A stretch of 64,000 bases of DNA from Bdellovibrionales bacterium (GTDB lineage Bacteria; Bdellovibrionota; Bdellovibrionia; Bdellovibrionales; CAYMLA01), in NCBI GenBank assembly GCA_965217115.1, contig OZ244239.1, positions 1,504,001-1,568,000 of the forward strand, given 5' to 3'. Under the pieces are notes generated by a model. That model saw only the letters and a list, made by a program, of their open reading frames with translations, was not told the DNA's origin and ran no database searches. Position 1 is the stretch's first letter. Every line of letters begins with the position of its first letter. This document shows, piece after piece, positions 54,174 to 63,607 of the stretch. The position numbers and the translations under genes were made by a program.

Positions 54174-54250
54174 GGGGGTTTAGCTTAGCTGGTTAAAGCA
54201 TTCGGCTCATAACCGAAGGATCCGGGGTTCGAGTCCCTGAGCCCCTACCA
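54174..54250 (+). tRNA. tRNA with CAT anticodon, probably Ile2 (elongator Met not excluded)
   Basis: Cloverleaf; loop CTCATAA; lacks the initiator GGG/CCC anticodon stem; encoded CCA; after rpoD like E. coli ileX. Confidence 0.93.
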
Positions 54251-54461: not shown

Positions 54462-54881
54462 ATCATAAAGTGATGAGTGGTATTGATAAACCTTGGGGTT
54501 GTCCAAGCCCTTTTAATAAAGAGGCTTGCACGAAGTGGAACAAGGTTTCTTCTGCAAAGATAAATCGTCGTGGGGAGGTGAGAGATGGAAATTAATATCT
54601 TAAACTTAAGTCCATCACATTGAGAAGAAGATGTCTGAAAACTCAGAGTCATCTGTCAGGTTTTCGTATCTCTTGCAGACGCTTCTTGAGAATACAGAAG
54701 GTCAAAGGGATAGGTCAGTATGATTGGGACTCCAATGGTTGTAAAAAGTATTGTTGATTCTGGGTTTACGGCTTTTACAAGTACGCTGACTTCAGTGGTG
54801 GCGATGACTATGGTTAGTGTAAAGGCTAAGGCTATGAGCCTTGCAGGGGCTGGAAAAAGAGCTTTTAAAAGATAATCTAAA
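54462..54881 (+). ncRNA. Candidate ~420-nt structured non-coding element, copy 1
   Basis: Direct repeat with 62310-62729; many nested helices with G-U pairs on the + strand. Confidence 0.5.
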
Positions 54882-54943
54882 CATGAAGTCTTTATTTTTA
54901 AAGATGTCATATCCCAATTTTCTAACCACTTGGCCCATTTCAT
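54882..54943 (-). pseudogene. 5' stub of a gene truncated at the 420-bp element
   Basis: MKWAKWLENWDMTSLKIKT with RBS-like AAGG, then runs into the repeat. Confidence 0.55.
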
Positions 54944-54957
54944 TTATTAACCTTGAG

Positions 54958-55176
54958 TCATCCTAGATTGTTACTATTTTTTTTATCTGGGTTAGAGACT
55001 GGAGTTTTTACTCCATTAATTTCTCGAGTATGATAATCATCATAATTACCTTTATCAATCTTTTTAACAAATTCAGCACGAGTCATTTTAATTCCAGTAC
55101 TCTTATCTCTAAATAGCTGGTTTCTTCCTTTATTGTTTTCTGCTATAGTTTCGACTGTTTTTCCTTTCTTTCCCAT
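54958..55176 (-). CDS. DUF3892-like small protein
   Basis: GGAGG RBS; MTRAEFVKKIDKG...SNPDKKNSNNLG. Confidence 0.7.
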   Translation of the reverse strand: MGKKGKTVETIAENNKGRNQLFRDKSTGIKMTRAEFVKKIDKGNYDDYHTREINGVKTPVSNPDKKNSNNLG

Positions 55177-55476
55177 GCAATATCCTCCATTTAGTGTCCA
55201 CCTTCTCCACCAAGTATACTCTGAAAATTAAATCCCTCATCACCTAAAACCAAAGATGTGCCATTTTGCAACAAGTTTAGATGAAGATTTGTAGATTTTT
55301 TGTATGATTTCCTTGAGGATACGGAGAGTTTTTCCTGAAGCACGAGAATTTAGTTCTTGAATCATATTATTCATGGAGTTTTCTTTATAAGTCCAATGAG
55401 CATTATTTTTCAATTTTGACTTGCCTAAGAGCCTTTGGATTGAAGTTGGCAAGCTATTGATTCAAATAATTAACAT

Positions 55477-55669
55477 TGAAGTTCCCTCAAAAAACTGGAG
55501 TGCGTAGCCTGGCTGTGGTGCACTAAATTAATCAATTTTTCTATCCAATAAAAAGCAGAAAGAAACACATTGGCGACATTGTTTAAAATCACAATACTTG
55601 ATGAGTTAAGTGTAGCTTAGTGTCTCTTTTTATTTATAGAAAAGTGTCCAGTTTTTTGGGGGAAGTACA
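55477..55669. mobile_element. IS3-family-derived MITE / internally deleted IS (193 bp)
   Basis: TG...CA ends; TGAAGTTCCCTCAAAAAACTGGAG vs reverse-complemented right end TGTACTTCCCCCAAAAAACTGGAC (20/24). Confidence 0.75.
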
Positions 55670-55686
55670 TTGTGCCCCCTATCTTC

Positions 55687-56256
55687 TTATTTTTTGAGGC
55701 CCTCTATTGGATATGCGCATAGATATAATCGTTCTATTTGGTCGCAAAGCTGCGTAAATTCATATCCTCCTACTAACAATTCAACATATCCATCTTGGAA
55801 TCCTATTTCTCCATTTTCTCCAGTGATACGAAAGCTTCCATGCGCAATAGAGTTTCTAATGCGGCGACATAATCCAATTGGAAGCTCTGTGCTTATAGTT
55901 TGTTGATTTTCGTCTTTCTCAAATATCTGCTTAAACAAATGTAGTGATGATGATTTATCAATGGAGATCAACTGAGATTCAAGCAAATCATTTCTCATGC
56001 ATATAAAGACAGCGTAGGCCCTTAGGATTACTTGTCCCCAAACAAGACAAAATTTACTAGTGGAATCAGAATAATTATGCTCAAGCACTGGAATTTTCTT
56101 AGCCAAACCGTTTAGCATCAGAGAATTTCTAAAATAAGTTTCTTTCAATTGCGAATCTTGGAGAGTGTCAGCGATATCTTTATTGGGAATATTTTTTAAC
56201 TTTTCAACAATTTTAGATAAGTTGATAGCGGTCAGGTGGAATGATTTGTTAGGCAT
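55687..56256 (-). CDS. HEPN-motif protein (putative RNase / defence effector)
   Basis: RxxxxH motif in RRIRNSIAHG; RBS before MPNKSF. Confidence 0.6.
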   Translation of the reverse strand: MPNKSFHLTAINLSKIVEKLKNIPNKDIADTLQDSQLKETYFRNSLMLNGLAKKIPVLEHNYSDSTSKFCLVWGQVILRAYAVFICMRNDLLESQLISIDKSSSLHLFKQIFEKDENQQTISTELPIGLCRRIRNSIAHGSFRITGENGEIGFQDGYVELLVGGYEFTQLCDQIERLYLCAYPIEGLKK

Positions 56257-56442
56257 AGCCTTTCCTTTTTTGGTCTTGAATATGACATTCATGATGAACA
56301 AGCCTTACATTGCTTTCTTGGTATCCAAGAAATGCCTCGAACCGATCAAGTTCGGAGCCTTTTTCAATAAGAGATTTTTTACACAAAGCACAAATGCCTT
56401 TTTAATATTTCCACAAAAAAAGCCCAAGGCAGAATACAAATA

Positions 56443-56476
56443 AAAAAAGGCTACAAATTAAATTGTAGCCTTTTTT
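56443..56476. terminator. Bidirectional intrinsic terminator of paralog A
   Basis: AAAAAAGGCTACAA-attaaa-TTGTAGCCTTTTTT. Confidence 0.85.
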
Positions 56477-56496
56477 AGATAGGAAAGTTAATATTT

Positions 56497-57027
56497 TTAA
56501 TAAACTTTTTTAAAGTAATAGCAATTTGCAATAACAGTATGAGTATTCAGATCAAAAACCTGACCCACAAAATAATCTCCATATTTTTTTAATGAGTAGT
56601 GTGTAAATTCATTTGCAGATACTAAAGAGCCCTCCTGTTCCTTGGTGGTAAAGACCTCATTATCGAACATCCGTGTAAGTTCTTTCACATCATTTTTAAA
56701 TTCTGATAAATTATTATCAAAATAGTTCGCTGGTAGGGTTCTTCTATCAGAAACAAATATCATTTGCTGTGCTGTCCTTGGAGGAAAGTCGTTACGATTA
56801 TCTGGATGTATAATTACGCGATATGTTAATAGTCCAGCTTCTGGCTTGCTTGGCTTTCTTGCATTGTAACATCTTCCAGACCACCAACCAAAAATTTCTT
56901 CTTTTGTAGGTAGGGTTCCTTGGTCAAACATCTCTCCGAGTTCTTCAAAATCAGTGGGAAATTCTGATGCTGCATGGACATTGCTAAATGCTAGGCATGA
57001 TAAGAGAACAATAGATAGAAACTTCAT
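56497..57027 (-). CDS. Secreted paralog family member A
   Basis: AAGGAG RBS, signal peptide (VHA|ASE), conserved GWWSGRCY and ANCY.FKKVY. Confidence 0.9.
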   Translation of the reverse strand: MKFLSIVLLSCLAFSNVHAASEFPTDFEELGEMFDQGTLPTKEEIFGWWSGRCYNARKPSKPEAGLLTYRVIIHPDNRNDFPPRTAQQMIFVSDRRTLPANYFDNNLSEFKNDVKELTRMFDNEVFTTKEQEGSLVSANEFTHYSLKKYGDYFVGQVFDLNTHTVIANCYYFKKVY

Positions 57028-57133
57028 TTCAACTCCTTATTTATATTGCCTACTTAGGCAATGGTTTTGTTACGAGCTTTACCGCTCATAAAGTTATTGT
57101 GCTTTATTTAAAACACACAGCCTATTTAACAGT

Positions 57134-57182
57134 TCACAGATGGGGCTTTTTATTTTGTGTCCCATTTTTGGGGTACAGATCA
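57134..57182. mobile_element. Isolated 49-bp IS3 end
   Basis: Identical to 59416-59464, the end of the full IS. Confidence 0.9.
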
Positions 57183-57221
57183 TAAATTGTAGCCTTTTTT
57201 TAGATAAGAAAGTTAATATTT

Positions 57222-57746
57222 TTAATAAACTTTTTTAAAGAAATAGCAATTTGCATAAACACCCCTAAGATAATGAGAAGACTGGCCCACAAAATAATCT
57301 CTATATTTTCTTAGTGAGAAGATTACAGATCCATCTGTAGCTAAAGAACCCTCCTTTTCCTCGGTGATAAATTTCTGATTACCACGGTCCCTTATACGTT
57401 GTGTCACATTACCTTTAAACCTTGATAAATCATTATCAAAAGAGTTCGCTGGTGCTTTTGTTGTTGGACGATGAAACATCATTTGATGTGCTGTCTTTGG
57501 GGGGAAATCGCCACCATTATCTGGGTGTATATTTATGCGAGATGTTAATAGGCCAGCTACTGGTTCGCTTGGCGCTTTTGCTGTGTAACATCTTCCAGAC
57601 CACCAACCAAAAGTTTCTTCTTCTGTAGGTAGGGTTCCTTGGTCAAACATCTCTCCGAGTTCTTCAAAATTAGTGGGAAATTCTGATGCTGCATGGACAT
57701 TGCTAAATGCTAGGCATGATAAGAGAACAATAGATAGAAACTTCAT
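57222..57746 (-). CDS. Secreted paralog family member B
   Basis: Same signal peptide, RBS and Cys motifs as A. Confidence 0.9.
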   Translation of the reverse strand: MKFLSIVLLSCLAFSNVHAASEFPTNFEELGEMFDQGTLPTEEETFGWWSGRCYTAKAPSEPVAGLLTSRINIHPDNGGDFPPKTAHQMMFHRPTTKAPANSFDNDLSRFKGNVTQRIRDRGNQKFITEEKEGSLATDGSVIFSLRKYRDYFVGQSSHYLRGVYANCYFFKKVY

Positions 57747-57986
57747 TTCAACTCCTTATTTATATTGCCTACTTAGGCAATGGTTTTGTTACGAGCTTTA
57801 CTGCTCATATACTTATTGCGTTTTATTTAAAACACACAGTCTATTTAACAGTTTTTCTATAAATGTCTACAATTATAATAATGGATTCACTAGTACCTAA
57901 AAAAAACCTACAATGCAAAAAAACTAAATAAAAACAAATATTTAACCAAGGCCACTCTCTTTTAATAAAACAAAAAGGAGTCAAAA

Positions 57987-58072
57987 ATGCTTCAACAAAC
58001 AGCTAGAAAATACTTTGAAGTCTGGGGAGACACTCAATCTCAAAACACTTTTCTAAAAGGCCTACTCATACT
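57987..58072 (+). pseudogene. Gene start interrupted by the IS3 element
   Basis: AAGGAG RBS, then MLQQTARKYFEVWGDTQSQNTFLKGLLI ending at the IS end. Confidence 0.55.
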
Positions 58073-58116
58073 TGATCTGTACCCCAAAAATGGGACAGGT
58101 TAATAAAAGGCCCAAG

Positions 58117-58978
58117 TTAAAAATTAAGATGCCTTCGATATTCACTCGGGGGCATCTTTTTTAGTCCTAACTGTGGACGTCTATGGTTATAATACTTTAT
58201 TTTCTTCGTCACTTCTTTTTTACATCTTCAAGTGTTTTACATTCTTTCAAATCTAGATGATCTTTTAGAAGTCCAAAAAACTTTCTATTGGTGCATTATC
58301 TAAACAATTTCCTTTTCTACTCATTGATTGAGTTACCCCTTTTCTTGCAAGTTTGTCTCTAAAGCTAAAATGAGTAAAGTGGAGTCCTTGATCAGAATGC
58401 ACAACAAGCCCCTCTAAAACCTCCTCTGATAAGTTTTTTAGTGTTTTATCAATCGCTCTATTACTCATCCCCAAATCAATTTTATTAGAAACATCAAAAC
58501 CAACAACCTCCTTTGTCCCAATATCTTTAACAGCTGCAAGGTAAGCTTTTTTATTCTCATATTGAAGGGTCGTTATATCTATTGAATAAATTTGATCTGG
58601 CTTCAAATCTTTAAAGTTTCTATCAACTAAGTTTGCACATGTTTCATGCTCAAGTTTCTTTTTAGAAAAACAACGATGTTTGTTCTTCTTTCTAATCTGA
58701 GTCTCCAATCCAAATTTCTTTTTTATCCGTGCAATTCTTTTATGGTTCAGAACAAGTCCCTCTCCAAGCTCTATAGACATCTTCAATTGCCTTATCCCAT
58801 CTCTACCCTTGCTTTTTTGATAATACTTTTTAATGATTTTAAACAAGTCTTTGTCACGTTTACTCATTTTAAGATTTGTTCGATAGTAATTACTTTTTGA
58901 TATCTTAAATTGATGTAGAAGATAACTTACGCGAATACATTTTCTTTTTATTTTGGCCTTAGCTATTTGTATTTTTAA
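58117..58978 (-). pseudogene. IS3 transposase OrfB (DDE) with two frameshifts near the C-terminus
   Basis: SIDIT, HSDQG, SRKGNCLDNAPIESF; remainder GLLKDHL...YYNHRRPQLGLKKMPP lies in shifted frames. Confidence 0.85.
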
Positions 58979-59382
58979 GATTTCTTTTTCGCTAAGGCCT
59001 TCTTCTTTTTTAGCTCTTCAATGACTCCTTCTTGAACATCAATAATCGCCAAAAGCTCATCATAACTTAGATTCTCATAATTTATTTTTTTGGGCCTTCC
59101 CGAACTACCAAGCCCTCGATATTCAGTGAAAAATGAGCTTTTCCCTAGGGTTTGATGTTTCTCCCTCCATTTTTTAATGCTGTTTACAGGATAAGTTGAA
59201 ATAAAAAAACTTAAATCAATATCTGCATCTTTAAAAATGAGAACTTGGCTCTTCCCTCTAAAATACTCTTCTACTGCATGAATCTTAAATTCAGGAGTAA
59301 AAACAACGTGCTTTTTAGTTAATTTTTCTACATTAGGGTTCTCAAGAAGCTTTTGCCTTTGAAATTTAGATAGTTTATGCAT
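58975..59382 (-). CDS. IS3 transposase OrfA (HTH)
   Basis: LLENPNV...FTPEFKIHAV; GRPKK; ends IEELKKKKAL at the frameshift window. Confidence 0.88.
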   Translation of the reverse strand: MHKLSKFQRQKLLENPNVEKLTKKHVVFTPEFKIHAVEEYFRGKSQVLIFKDADIDLSFFISTYPVNSIKKWREKHQTLGKSSFFTEYRGLGSSGRPKKINYENLSYDELLAIIDVQEGVIEELKKKKALAKKKS

Positions 59383-59504
59383 TTCTGTACTCCTAAAACA
59401 ATAAACCCCATCATATCACAGATGGGGCTTTTTATTTTGTGTCCCATTTTTGGGGTACAGATCATTAAATTGTAGCCTTTTTTTAGATAGGAAAGTTAAT
59501 ATTT

Positions 59505-60035
59505 TTAATAAACTTTTTTAAAGTAATAGCAATTTGCAATAACAGTATGAGTATTCAGATAAATAATCTGACCCACAAAATAATCTCCATATTTTTTTAA
59601 TGAGTAGTGTGTATATTTATCTGCAGATACTAAAGAGCTCTCCTGTTCCTTGGTGGTAAAGACCTCATTATCGAACATCCGTGTAAGTTTTTTCACACCA
59701 TTTTTAAACTCTGATAAATTATTATCATAATAGTTCGCTGGTGGGGTTCCTGTACTAGAAACAAATATCATTTGCTGTGCTGTCCTTGGAGGAAAGTCGT
59801 TACGATTATCTGGATGTATAATTACGCGATATGTTAATAGTCCAGCTGTTGGCTTGCTTGGCTCTCCTCCTCTGTAACATCTTCCAGACCACCAACCAAA
59901 AGTTTCTTCTTTTGTAGGTAGGGTTCCTTGGTCAAACATCTCTCCGAGTTCTTCAAAATCAGTGGAAAGCTCTGATGCTGCATGGACACTGCTAAATGCT
60001 AGGCATGAGAAGATAACAATAGATAAAAACTTCAT
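59505..60035 (-). CDS. Secreted paralog family member C
   Basis: Closest to A; same flanks. Confidence 0.9.
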   Translation of the reverse strand: MKFLSIVIFSCLAFSSVHAASELSTDFEELGEMFDQGTLPTKEETFGWWSGRCYRGGEPSKPTAGLLTYRVIIHPDNRNDFPPRTAQQMIFVSSTGTPPANYYDNNLSEFKNGVKKLTRMFDNEVFTTKEQESSLVSADKYTHYSLKKYGDYFVGQIIYLNTHTVIANCYYFKKVY

Positions 60036-60305
60036 TACAACTCCTTATTTATATTGCCTATTTAGGCAATGGTTTTATTATGAGGCTTACCGCCCATAAA
60101 TTTATTGCGTTTTATTTAAAACACACAGTTTATTTAACAGTTTTTCTATAAATGTCTACAATTATAATTGTAGCCTCAAATCGTAATAAATTCACCGAAT
60201 TGACTCATAAATAATCAGATCGAAGAGGCCTGGAGTCCTAGAATTAAGATTTGTACTTAGGATTCTAGGTATGTAAAAATTATATTTCCTACGGAAGAAC
60301 AAGTA

Positions 60306-60864
60306 ATGCAGGCTAAGGAGCTTAGAATTTTCTGTCATCAAATTGGACTCAGAGAGGCCAAATTTCATGATCTAAGAGAGACGTATATTACAAATTTACT
60401 GAGTAATGGAGTCGGAATTAGTAAGGTTATGAAGCAAGTAGTTAAAACAGTTTTACAGTATGTGACTGTTGATGAGAAGAGAAAGAAAACACTGGATAAC
60501 TCGCTCCAAGATATTGAGCAAATTTCTGAGAATCTTCTCATTAAATACAGAGAGGATGAGAAAGAAGGATTCGATGACAGTGCTTGTCTTATCTCATTTT
60601 GGGAATCAAAAAAAAATTGAACATAGTGATAGAGGTATAGAATTTACTGAGAGTATAAAATGGAACGATTTAGATAAGATCAAAGAATCTATTGGCCTTA
60701 AAAGAACACTCTCAAACATCATCAACAATGCCGTAGAAGCGGTAGAACCAGGCAATGGGATAGGGCTTTTAAATGCTCAGAAGTATATTGACTCTGTTGG
60801 TGGGACTTTGAGGATTAAAGGTCTAACTAAGAACACAACGATTAAATGCATTGTTCGATCTTGA
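60306..60864 (+). pseudogene. Mosaic remnant: tyrosine recombinase C-terminal fragment joined to histidine-kinase fragments
   Basis: FHDLRETYITNLLSNGV (HxxR box); LSNIINNAVEA (N box) joined to GNGIGL...VGGTL (G2 box). Confidence 0.7.
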
Positions 60865-60910
60865 CCTTTATATTTGAATGTGATTGCTTTGGTGGCAAAG
60901 GAGGTTGTTT

Positions 60911-62215
60911 GTGAGTCATGGTAGTCGAATATATAAACTAGAAGAGGTTTTTGTTAAGAGTGGAGTGCCACTTCATACCTTTGTTGATCGAGAAATCTTG
61001 AAGAAAGAATTAGAATCAAATATTACTTTGAGAAGTAACGCGATATTTTTTCTTGGATATTCAAAAAGCGGAAAAACTGTTTTTAGAAAAAAATATTTTG
61101 ATTCCACTAACGAATTTGAAGAATGTCTTTTTCGCTGCTCCAGAGATTCAACAAAGGAGCAGTTATACAATTTTATGGCAAACGAGTTTCAAATACATCC
61201 TCCAAGTTCAACGACAGAAACAAATTCTTCTTCAAATGAAGGGAGAATTTCCTTGGGAATCAGTAATCTCAAGCTATTAGGGAAAAAGAATAACTTAGTC
61301 TCAAAGTCAACGACCTCGCAAAATTTAACTGATAAAATTGATGTTAATTACCTTTGTAAAAGTATACCTAGTAATTCAAAAAAGATAATTGTTCTAGAAG
61401 ATTATCATCTTTTAGACAGAGATTTTACAGAATCTTTTACTGAAGATTTAAAACATTTTTTAGATCAAGAGATTGTTTTTATTATTATAGGAATTCCAAG
61501 TTCTCCAGATAGAACGTTTGCAGCAAACCCTGATTTAACGGGGCGTGTAAAAGGGCTGAATTTTGATTATCTAACAGAGGAAGAGTCAAGAAAACTTATT
61601 AGTAAAGGGGAAAAATGTTTAAATATTCGTATTGATGATGAGTCAAAGAAACAAATTTTTGAAAAATCTTTTGGGAATGCCTATTTGATTCAGTCAATAT
61701 GCCAGGAAGTTTTTAGGAAAAGTAATGTTGAGAGTACATCAGAAATAGAAAAAGTTATTAATGTTTTGGACTCTATAGATACGGCGTGTAGAGAACTGGC
61801 AAGTAGTTTAAAGAATGATTATTCATCTATTATGGAAGTAATAATTAAAGGGGCAAGAAAACAACAGGAGGGAAAAGCTTTTAATCAATATGAGGAAATT
61901 TTAAAATCGATTAAATCTACAGATATAAGTGACTTAGAAAAAGGCTTAAGCCATACTACAATAGCGAGCAATACATGGAGTTCTTTTGGAGAAGAAACCA
62001 TTAATAAATTTGTCAAAAAAGAAAAAAAATATCAAAGTGAAAAGTCATTTAAAGGGTCTGTACAGAGTCAAATAACTTCAGCTTTGAATTCTTTAGAAGA
62101 AAATTTTAAAAAAGCAAATGCAAGAAAGATAATCCATGTATATGAAAAAACTTTATATTTAAGTGATATTGTTTTTAAATTTTATCTTGATTGGAGTGAG
62201 GATAGTGTTTATTGA
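60911..62215 (+). CDS. P-loop (AAA/STAND-like) ATPase of unknown function
   Basis: Walker A GYSKSGKT, Walker B IIVLEDYH; GGAGG before GTG 60911. Confidence 0.8.
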   Translation: MSHGSRIYKLEEVFVKSGVPLHTFVDREILKKELESNITLRSNAIFFLGYSKSGKTVFRKKYFDSTNEFEECLFRCSRDSTKEQLYNFMANEFQIHPPSSTTETNSSSNEGRISLGISNLKLLGKKNNLVSKSTTSQNLTDKIDVNYLCKSIPSNSKKIIVLEDYHLLDRDFTESFTEDLKHFLDQEIVFIIIGIPSSPDRTFAANPDLTGRVKGLNFDYLTEEESRKLISKGEKCLNIRIDDESKKQIFEKSFGNAYLIQSICQEVFRKSNVESTSEIEKVINVLDSIDTACRELASSLKNDYSSIMEVIIKGARKQQEGKAFNQYEEILKSIKSTDISDLEKGLSHTTIASNTWSSFGEETINKFVKKEKKYQSEKSFKGSVQSQITSALNSLEENFKKANARKIIHVYEKTLYLSDIVFKFYLDWSEDSVY

Positions 62216-62309
62216 AGAATAAAACAAATGTAGTTAAATAGTATTCTGTATTAATAAAAAGAAAACGAATTTAGAAATTATGTGACCTATATATGAACTA
62301 TAGTTCAAA

Positions 62310-62729
62310 ATCATAAAGTGATGAGTGGTATTGATAAACCTTGGGGTTGTCCAAGCCCTTTTAATAAAGAGGCTTGCACGAAGTGGAACAAGGTTTCTTC
62401 TGCAAAGATAAATCGTCGTGGGGAGGTGAGAGATGGAAATTAATATCTTAAACTTAAGTCCATCACACTGAGAAGAAGATGTCTGAAAACCCAGAGTTAT
62501 CTGTCAGGTTTTCGTATCTCTTGCAGACGCTTCTTGAGAATACAGAAGGTCAAAGGGATAGGTCAGTATGATTGGGACTCCAATGGTTGTAAAAAGTATT
62601 GTTGGGTCTGGGTTTACGGCTTTTACAAGTACGCTGACTTCAGTGGTGGAGATGACTATGCTTAGTGTAAAGGCTAAGGCTATGAGCCTTGCAGGGGCTG
62701 GAAAAAGGTCTTTTAAAAGACAGTCTAAA
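62310..62729 (+). ncRNA. Candidate ~420-nt structured non-coding element, copy 2
   Basis: 11 substitutions counted by eye versus copy 1, no indels seen. Confidence 0.5.
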
Positions 62730-62782
62730 TAATAGCTACAGTTAAAAAATTACTTACAAAAAATCCAGGCCAGCTTACAAAT

Positions 62783-62820
62783 AAAAAAGGCTACAAATCA
62801 TTAAATTGTAGCCTTTTTTT
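62783..62820. terminator. Bidirectional intrinsic terminator of paralog D
   Basis: AAAAAAGGCTACAA-atcattaaa-TTGTAGCCTTTTTTT. Confidence 0.85.
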
Positions 62821-62831
62821 AGATAGAAAAA

Positions 62832-63371
62832 TTAATACGAATAAACTTTTTTAAAGAAATAGCAATTTGCATAAACGCTAATTGTATGACTTATATCAAG
62901 ACTCTGTCCCACAAAATAATTGTTATATTTTTTTACTGAGAAGACTGTAACTCCATTTGTAGATGCTAAAGAGCCCCATTGTTCCTTGATGGTAAAGGTC
63001 TGATGATCAAGGCTCTTCATATATGCCATCACATTATCCTTAAACTCTGGTAAATTATTGTCATAATAATTCATTGGTAGTTCTGGCCTATTACGAAGAA
63101 ACTTCATGTGATGTGATGTCCTTGGAGGAAGGTTGCCACCATTATTTGGAGCTATATTTATGTGAGATGCTAATAGAACAGATCTTGGCTTGCTTGGCGC
63201 TTTTGCTTTGTAACATCTTCCAGACCACCAACCAAAAATTTCTTCTTCTGTAGGTAGGGTTCCTTGGTCATACATTTCTCCCAGTTCTTCAAAATTAGTG
63301 GGAAACTCTGATGCTGCATGGACATTGCTAAATGCTAGGCATGATAAGATAACAATAGATAAAAACTTCAT
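62832..63371 (-). CDS. Secreted paralog family member D
   Basis: Same signal peptide, RBS and Cys motifs. Confidence 0.9.
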   Translation of the reverse strand: MKFLSIVILSCLAFSNVHAASEFPTNFEELGEMYDQGTLPTEEEIFGWWSGRCYKAKAPSKPRSVLLASHINIAPNNGGNLPPRTSHHMKFLRNRPELPMNYYDNNLPEFKDNVMAYMKSLDHQTFTIKEQWGSLASTNGVTVFSVKKYNNYFVGQSLDISHTISVYANCYFFKKVYSY

Positions 63372-63607
63372 TTCAACTCCTTATTTATATTGCCTACTTG
63401 GGCAATGGTTTTGTTACGAGCTTTACCACCCATAAAGTTATTGCACTTTATTTAAAACACAGAGTCTATTTAACAGTTTTTCTATAAATGTCTACAATAA
63501 AGTGTAATAAATTCATGAATTGACTCATAAATAATCACATCGAAAAGGCCTTTCGATAGAACAGTTTTCTTTAATGATATTTCATATTTTAGAGGAAGAA
63601 ATACGAC

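Follow-up and report, generated by a model that had tools for sequence, protein, structure and literature searches.

A multi-copy family of small proteins with a predicted barrel fold in a Bdellovibrionales genome, with diversifying selection concentrated at one predicted end

Why should a set of closely related genes change its proteins while largely sparing its silent codon positions? The question is raised by a 64,000-nucleotide stretch of the genome of a Bdellovibrionales bacterium (assembly GCA_965217115.1, contig OZ244239.1, positions 1,504,001 to 1,568,000; this whole stretch is the window, and positions in it are counted from its first nucleotide). Four genes for small, probably exported proteins are transcribed from its minus strand, namely copies A (56497–57027, 176 amino acids), B (57222–57746, 174 amino acids), C (59505–60035, 176 amino acids) and D (62832–63371, 179 amino acids), all located where a preliminary description of the locus had placed them. 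We find that they belong to a larger family that is under strong diversifying selection, that falls outside every family against which it was tested, and that behaves as a repertoire of variable binders. That the proteins are variable binders engaged in an arms race is highly probable, and we tentatively propose that each copy binds its own version of a foreign protein and neutralises it.

A and C share 94% nucleotide identity, and their codon alignment contains exactly the 25 amino-acid and three silent differences that had been counted by eye, with changes falling 16, 11 and 4 times at codon positions 1, 2 and 3, so that third positions are indeed mostly spared. The changes are clustered, with 11 adjacent pairs where 3.4 are expected (p=5e-5), but just 14 of the 25 lie inside the four patches to which they had been assigned, and a fifth variable zone, a helix at residues 107–123, had been overlooked. 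The first ~54 residues, described as shared, are identical in 45 of 54 columns across A–D, but they hold six of the 25 A–C changes, and the FKKVY ending described for all four copies is FKKVYSY in D.

What had been taken for a four-member family has eight intact copies when paralogs are counted across the single contig (G000:C1) of this 2.17-Mb genome: A–D in the window, E and F at 428–430 kb, G at 753 kb and H at 788 kb. A profile search with 150 sequences yields no ninth copy. The reading frame and both cysteines (Cys53 and Cys169 in A) are preserved in all eight. Assembly artefact, including the strain mixing considered in the preliminary description, is an unlikely source of the copies because the genome is one contig with a contamination value of 0.19, each copy has its own flanking DNA, and contigs from sequencing runs match the unique part of D with no differing letters; the four runs represent one sample, possibly the source of the assembly, and are not independent.

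Selection was examined with codon site models written in Python, primarily in the six close copies (A, B, C, D, E and G), with F and H as older copies. All 15 pairs among the six have a ratio of non-synonymous to synonymous substitution rates (omega) above one (1.07–2.56), four of them nominally significant and one of them, B–D, falling to 0.96 with BLAST alignments, while omega is below one in all 13 pairs that include F or H. Positive selection had been proposed from A and C, which taken alone give an omega of 2.56 with a Fisher p of 0.078; it is with six to eight copies that the site models support it. Among the six, model M2a is preferred to M1a with a likelihood-ratio test (LRT) statistic of 100.8 and an omega2 of 10.2 at 22% of sites, and M8 to M8a with a statistic of 100.6. 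The LRT is 101.0 and 95.7 under F1x4 and F61 frequencies, 70.9 once 24 gap-flanking codons are dropped, 54.6 and 77.8 when five or three segments are given trees of their own, and 75.5 in a model permitting double and triple base changes; it is 47.1 for the four window copies only and 130.0 for all eight. The proposal of selection acting on a scaffold closed by a disulfide, the disulfide being predicted, is supported with these six to eight copies.

The copies also show a signal of recombination in a test of the pairwise homoplasy index (PHI) type (p=0.0004), and a sign of mosaic history is that the upstream modules of A and C differ by 12% whereas their silent sites differ by less than 3%. 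In 40 data sets simulated without selection and with segment-specific trees, the LRT has a mean of 11.5 and a maximum of 29.0, and none of the 40 reaches the observed value, which is 3.5 times the largest of them; recombination thus inflates the test yet cannot explain 100.8. These results bear on a reading in which the genes are relaxed or decaying mobile cargo, their excess of amino-acid changes arising from relaxed selection, recombination and alignment error. It would accommodate a scaffold omega near one, the PHI-type result, the rise in LRT caused by recombination alone, and the degenerate insertion sequence (IS) and integrase fragment that adjoin copies. However, the null models already permit an omega of one, the simulated maximum is far exceeded, the eight frames and their cysteines are intact, and the excess is restricted to one predicted end of the protein; this reading is largely refuted and we regard it as very improbable. 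We note that one homologue, P0003, combines a D-like body with a G-like N-terminus and may be either a natural recombinant or an assembly chimera. The close homologues P0003, P0006, P0008, P0010 and P0166 are on short contigs, with a 6550-nt contig listed for P0006, P0008 and P0166.

Where in the protein do the selected sites fall? An AlphaFold model built with 150 homologues (predicted local distance difference test, pLDDT, 93.9; predicted template modelling score, pTM, 0.89) is a single barrel of 157 residues, in which DSSP assigns eight antiparallel strands in sequential up-down order. In full-length numbering, a predicted helix (26–36) and strands 47–55, 58–73 and 85–93 are followed by a long loop with a helix (107–123), and by the remaining strands at approximately 127–131, 134–138, 142–149, 152–159 and 164–174. 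Gly47-Trp48-Trp49 follows a helix at 42–45 and starts strand 1, its residues being conserved in 84%, 69% and 42%, respectively, of up to 140 distant homologues, and Arg52 and Cys169 do not vary across 150 homologues. The G-W-W-S-G-R-C and G-P motifs, Asp104 and the C-Y-Y-F motif look structural. In the model, Cys53–Cys169 is predicted to tie strand 1 to strand 8, the N-terminal helix and the G-x-W-x-G motif to close one end of the barrel, and loops 1, 3 (with its helix), 5 and 7 to form the opposite end.

Loops 1, 3, 5 and 7 of an up-down barrel all lie at one end, and the open end was defined as these loops together with the half of each strand next to them (77 codons), a division chosen by topology after the sites had been seen. 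Of 22 sites in the mature protein with a posterior above 0.9, 21 lie at this end (p=9e-7), or 11 of 12 when loop 3 is excluded, and 18 of the 25 A–C changes fall in the same half. The four patches, previously suggested to be loops, correspond by topology to predicted loops 1, 3, 5 and 7. In A (all coordinates on the minus strand) the selected codons are 55, 58 and 63 in predicted loop 1 and the top of strand 2 (codons 55–63, 56839–56865); 93–96 at the start of predicted loop 3 (codons 93–98, 56734–56751), adjoining an indel in E and G; 109, 113, 115, 116, 117, 120 and 125 in the loop-3 helix and the residues after it (codons 109–125, 56653–56703); 141 and 143 in predicted loop 5 (codons 139–143, 56599–56613); and 157, 160, 161, 163 and 167 in predicted loop 7 and its flanks (codons 157–167, 56527–56559). 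Omega in the open-end half is 2.45 (p=8e-5 against one; 2.88 without gap flanks), compared to 1.38 in the signal peptide, 0.85 in the N-terminus and 1.10 in the closed half of the six young copies; purifying selection on the scaffold shows only against the older copies and in family-wide conservation. Topology, rather than coordinates, suggests that the selected residues form one contiguous surface.

What might such a surface bind? Fold searches give only weak matches, to eight-stranded up-down barrels, with the best Z scores at 7.0–7.4 and none at 8 or above, and Foldseek returns nothing at E < 0.001. The matches include the designed barrel 6czj (Z 7.1–7.4, with 97–98 residues aligning in order), Tcur_1030 (PDB 4mve; Z 7.0, root-mean-square deviation (rmsd) 3.8, 117 residues aligned, N-terminal helix included), PliC (4mir, 3oe3; Z 6.1, rmsd 3.0, 78 aligned), the BtaiB immunity protein (9jdd; Z 6.0, rmsd 3.8, 93 aligned), nitrobindin and fatty-acid-binding proteins (FABPs; Z 5–6), potempin E (Z 4.7) and staphostatin (Z 4.6). 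One possibility is a lipocalin-type binder of small molecules, in which a pocket diversifies for hydrophobic ligands such as nutrients, signals or toxic metabolites. The G-x-W-x-G motif opening strand 1 after a helix is in keeping with this, as are FABPs, nitrobindin and 4mve among the fold neighbours, an inward orientation that strand alternation suggests for selected sites 63, 93, 157, 163 and 167, and an Atlas feature score of 0.81 between homologue P0011 and a GXWXG/DUF4334 cluster, which is a lead only. We nonetheless consider it unlikely, since omega of about 10 at 22% of sites, among them those along one face of a helix, suggests an extensive protein interface that changes quickly, and neither transporters nor enzymes are conserved as neighbours.

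An interface with a foreign protein is the reading that we prefer, and the mode of export bears on its form. The proteins start with a signal-peptide-like segment, ending by inspection in VHA in copy A, and are likely exported through Sec as soluble proteins with no lipid anchor. Inspection led us to reject a lipoprotein reading of LLSC at residue 11, as the cysteine is early and the VHA cleavage site comes after it. The missing anchor would fit a soluble inhibitor better than an adhesin, and it is because of this, the inhibitor barrels among the fold neighbours, and the accumulation of orphan copies on islands that we favour a neutraliser. The domain is also fused behind Kelch repeats in one protein and occurs twice in tandem in P0147, as expected of a binding module.

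Several observations count against this interpretation. Neutralisation, as distinct from binding, is plausible but somewhat doubtful. A gene for a matching toxin is apparent next to none of the eight copies, nor among 56 of 75 neighbours of distant homologues; we keep the orphan immunity role as a provisional option even so. With all fold matches below Z 8, the resemblance may reflect just a common barrel shape, and ligand-binding or enzymatic barrels (4mve, nitrobindin, FABPs, OlmO) score at least as high as the inhibitors. The site posteriors are naive empirical Bayes values from six sequences, and purifying selection on the scaffold is invisible among these six youngest copies (omega 0.85–1.38). 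The synonymous substitution rate (dS) is 0.54 in the open half and 0.16–0.35 elsewhere, so that import of divergent segments may contribute, and the loops are variable family-wide, so that the location of the selected sites partly reflects tolerance. A second genome, G260, has 11 matches (12 open reading frames (ORFs) in the fetched regions, two of them truncated), and in a quick tree of 65 sequences its copies form their own branch (Shimodaira–Hasegawa-like approximate likelihood-ratio test, SH-aLRT, 98), apart from the copies studied here (98). Eight of 11 flagged G260 sites overlap sites in this genome (odds ratio 10.7), but the LRT for six G260 copies is 9.9, within the recombination null, so that G260 represents a separate expansion and not replicated selection; a three-sequence G260 subgroup (LRT 25.4) was left out because an apparent frameshift ends one member. 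Finally, other exported paralog families of this genome, pilins included, also have pairs with omega above one, and the present family is thus the clearest case of a genome-wide pattern rather than an isolated oddity. Pairwise omega values run from about 1 to about 2.3 in the exported or pilin families at G000:C1:95850-100274, 195939-197484, 1244765-1246765, 1816960-1821356 and 2154451-2169496.

How did the genome come to hold so many copies? Those in the window lie on an island whose left edge is a tRNA gene with a CAT anticodon (54174–54250, plus strand), a likely integration site, as the DNA that follows it matches DNA after a tRNA-Gln gene. Two copies of a 420-nt direct repeat (54462–54881 and 62310–62729, 97.4% identical) are present, the second just downstream of D, and the last 164 nt of the first match the 3′ end of a membrane gene of a compact conjugative element (G000:C1:743316-758984) with integrase, relaxase-like, coupling protein, TrbI, CagX, TraE-like and VirB4-like genes. 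Copy G lies within the transfer region of this element on the opposite strand, between the TraE-like gene and the membrane gene, which encodes 269 amino acids, has no Pfam match and is, at a guess, VirB6-like. With its integrase fragment and its two repeats, both of which end in a piece of that membrane gene, the window island looks like a decayed relative. B together with its upstream DNA is 89% identical to G over 906 nt, and the DNA downstream of D mirrors that of G (82% over 973 nt). A module of ~108 nt with a ribosome-binding site precedes A (57028–57134, minus strand) and also B, C, D, E, F and G, with a divergence of 0–14%, and an intact terminator-like hairpin stands 3′ of A (56443–56476, minus strand), with a D counterpart at ~62783–62820.

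The position of G raises the question of whether the proteins serve entry or surface exclusion for a conjugative element, and are retained as orphans against related elements. One of the eight copies sits inside the transfer region, and B and D carry pieces of that context; however, G is on the strand opposite to the transfer genes, and of the 75 neighbours listed for distant homologues, the 56 that were scanned include no match to a conjugation family. We regard an exclusion role as highly improbable.

Within the island, an IS3-type element (58073–59464, minus strand), with rve and HTH_21 domains and a second ORF that stops early, extends between the terminator of C and the upstream DNA of B, and a lone IS end (57134–57182, minus strand) in the terminator of B is joined directly to the upstream module of A. 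With C linked to B and B to A through IS sequence in this way, the C-B-A array was likely built by IS-driven rearrangement. There are seven IS3-type ends in the genome, four of which occupy an identical position in the terminators of copies B, C, E and F and occur in either orientation. These coincide at one base of the terminator loop (window positions 57182 and 59464; G000:C1:428103 and 429414), and the intact terminators of D and H hold a 12-mer resembling the IS end, which is possibly an insertion hot spot. In sequencing run X1, four contigs between the 420-nt repeats (window 54462–62729) have depths of 15.8–20.9, compared to 27.4–33.5 for three contigs outside the repeats and 43.1 for the repeat itself, which hints that the A-B-C cassette is absent from part of the population, although contig depth does not equal a share of cells; the dip is not clearly present in runs X2–X4 from the same sample. 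A motif of 36–50 nt is found upstream of C, D and H (window 60188–60237 and 63509–63551) and also upstream of unrelated genes at approximately 404, 735, 740, 2004 and 2005 kb, and a multi-copy inverted repeat is at window 55473–55673. Other cargo of the island (window 54958–56301 and 60884–62215) encodes a 72-residue weakly DUF3892-like protein, a 204-residue weakly HEPN-like protein (E 0.013) and a 443-residue AAA ATPase.

The HEPN-like and AAA genes, together with an arms-race rate of change, could point to a phage decoy or a variable phage receptor. However, the proteins lack an anchor, none of 150 members matches PADLOC and none of 14 matches PHROGs, and there is no match in 50,697 phage records or in viral contigs. 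We consider a role of this kind extremely improbable.

The family extends well beyond this genome, with 769 clusters at 50% identity in a profile search. In line with the preliminary description, which recognised no family, members have no real match in Pfam, NCBIfam, PADLOC, PHROGs or PDB sequences. Metagenome and viral scans gave no confirmed locus, and we found no published description, although word searches could miss mentions by locus tag. At the level of the phylum, 48 of 301 genomes carry a member, and at that of the order 44 of 280 (~16%), mostly in one or two copies; in the largest genus sampled it is three of 40. Named holders belong to Bdellovibrionales, Oligoflexia and Elusimicrobiota, with at least two true members among the 118 stretches listed in a pattern scan of named genomes. 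Small Bdellovibrionota without flagella have been reported as associates of sponges (PMC9944714). Among 75 ORFs neighbouring distant homologues, just DUF4423 regulators recur between loci. No fused forms of 504–2000 amino acids were found, which is weak evidence. At two loci (L020:1211-2020 and L038:985-1842) the family domain is fused behind an unnamed domain with a HEY motif, beside DUF4423 regulators.

This distribution bears on a further possibility, recognition or manipulation of prey or hosts, in which the exported barrels would bind variable surface molecules or enzymes and act as a non-fibre counterpart of MAT tips. The taxa of the named holders are in keeping with it, as is a genome that lacks flagellin, encodes six ATPases for secretion or pili, and includes pairs of pilin paralogs whose omega reaches 1.44. 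The MAT fibre proteins of Bdellovibrio bacteriovorus, as described in PMC10769870, indicate that such predators use diverse binding tips. Against this, the family has no membrane anchor or fibre domain, and its occurrence is so patchy in the order and in the largest genus that it is not core predation machinery. We judge this possibility somewhat unlikely.

A neutraliser repertoire, our preferred but tentative reading, could be generated in the following way. Mobile elements and IS-driven rearrangement would supply copies, gene conversion would mix them, and selection would remodel the open end of the barrel, much as in an anticalin library, with that end serving as the binding site. The target, the least supported step, might be a variable lytic enzyme or toxin of prey, competitors or host, and the copies would then constitute an orphan repertoire of antidotes or inhibitors.

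The selection map indicates an interface ahead of experiment, and the A/C pair, with most of its differences at the predicted open end, is ready for pull-downs and loop swaps. If the proteins are true variable binders, they would offer a small disulfide-closed scaffold whose tolerated positions have been mapped naturally. An unnamed family of at least 769 clusters is put on the map, in a field where the means by which Bdellovibrio-like bacteria with small genomes recognise their partners, or hold out against them, are largely open.

Comparison with known systems shows several partial resemblances. The MAT fibres are likewise a repertoire of diverse exported binders in related bacteria, but as described in PMC10769870 they are surface-displayed trimers with mosaic tips, whereas the present proteins are small single barrels, with nothing of the long trimeric fibre architecture in their 157 modelled residues, and vary by point substitution and conversion. 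Targets of diversity-generating retroelements (DGRs) similarly concentrate their variation on a single binding face and spare third codon positions, but the changes here are not adenine-specific, with 35% of the pairwise mismatches among the six copies involving no A, and spread across five zones. There is no DGR cassette, the one reverse transcriptase of the genome lying at a distance of ~300 kb and having no repeat within the surrounding 12 kb, and origin as a DGR product is ruled out by the missing template repeat and the non-adenine mismatches. That 315-residue enzyme (G000:C1:1867570-1877763) lies between small HTH-like (helix-turn-helix) and membrane genes, beside restriction-modification-like genes, and looks retron-like by context.

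The GXWXG/DUF4334 proteins (PF14231, PF14232) share a helix followed by a literal G-W-W-S-G, but a signal peptide, an invariant GRC and a C-terminal CY(Y/F)F set the present family apart, and none of 150 members matches either Pfam family at E up to 0.01; a Bdellovibrio DUF4334 gene is mentioned as likely acquired in PMC5941755. PliC, BtaiB, potempin E and staphostatin are small exported barrels of similar topology, whereas the members of this family are larger, have two extra helices, are multi-copy, and show omega of about 10; unlike periplasmic inhibitors and immunity proteins they have no Pfam match (0 of 150 for the PliC/MliC families) and no adjoining gene for a cognate toxin or enzyme.

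In calycins a short helix is followed by G-x-W where strand 1 begins, and lipocalins have a C-terminal helix after strand 8. The family shares with calycin barrels and engineered anticalins a predicted eight-stranded up-down barrel with G-x-W opening strand 1 and four variable loops at the end opposite G-x-W. It differs from both in having no sequence match and Z scores below 8, in the 17-residue helix in the loop between strands 3 and 4, in the absence of the C-terminal helix from a model that stops at strand 8, and in the predicted disulfide between strands 1 and 8. We raise with reserve the idea of a system of natural anticalins, in which a calycin-like barrel of Bdellovibrio-like bacteria and Elusimicrobiota would have been repeatedly expanded by mobile DNA; more doubtful than established, too, is its corollary that selection drives the four loops and a lid helix apart, yielding retroelement-free binders against proteins of prey, competitors or host. 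Whereas anticalins are engineered, the variation in this family is natural and is spread over paralogs.

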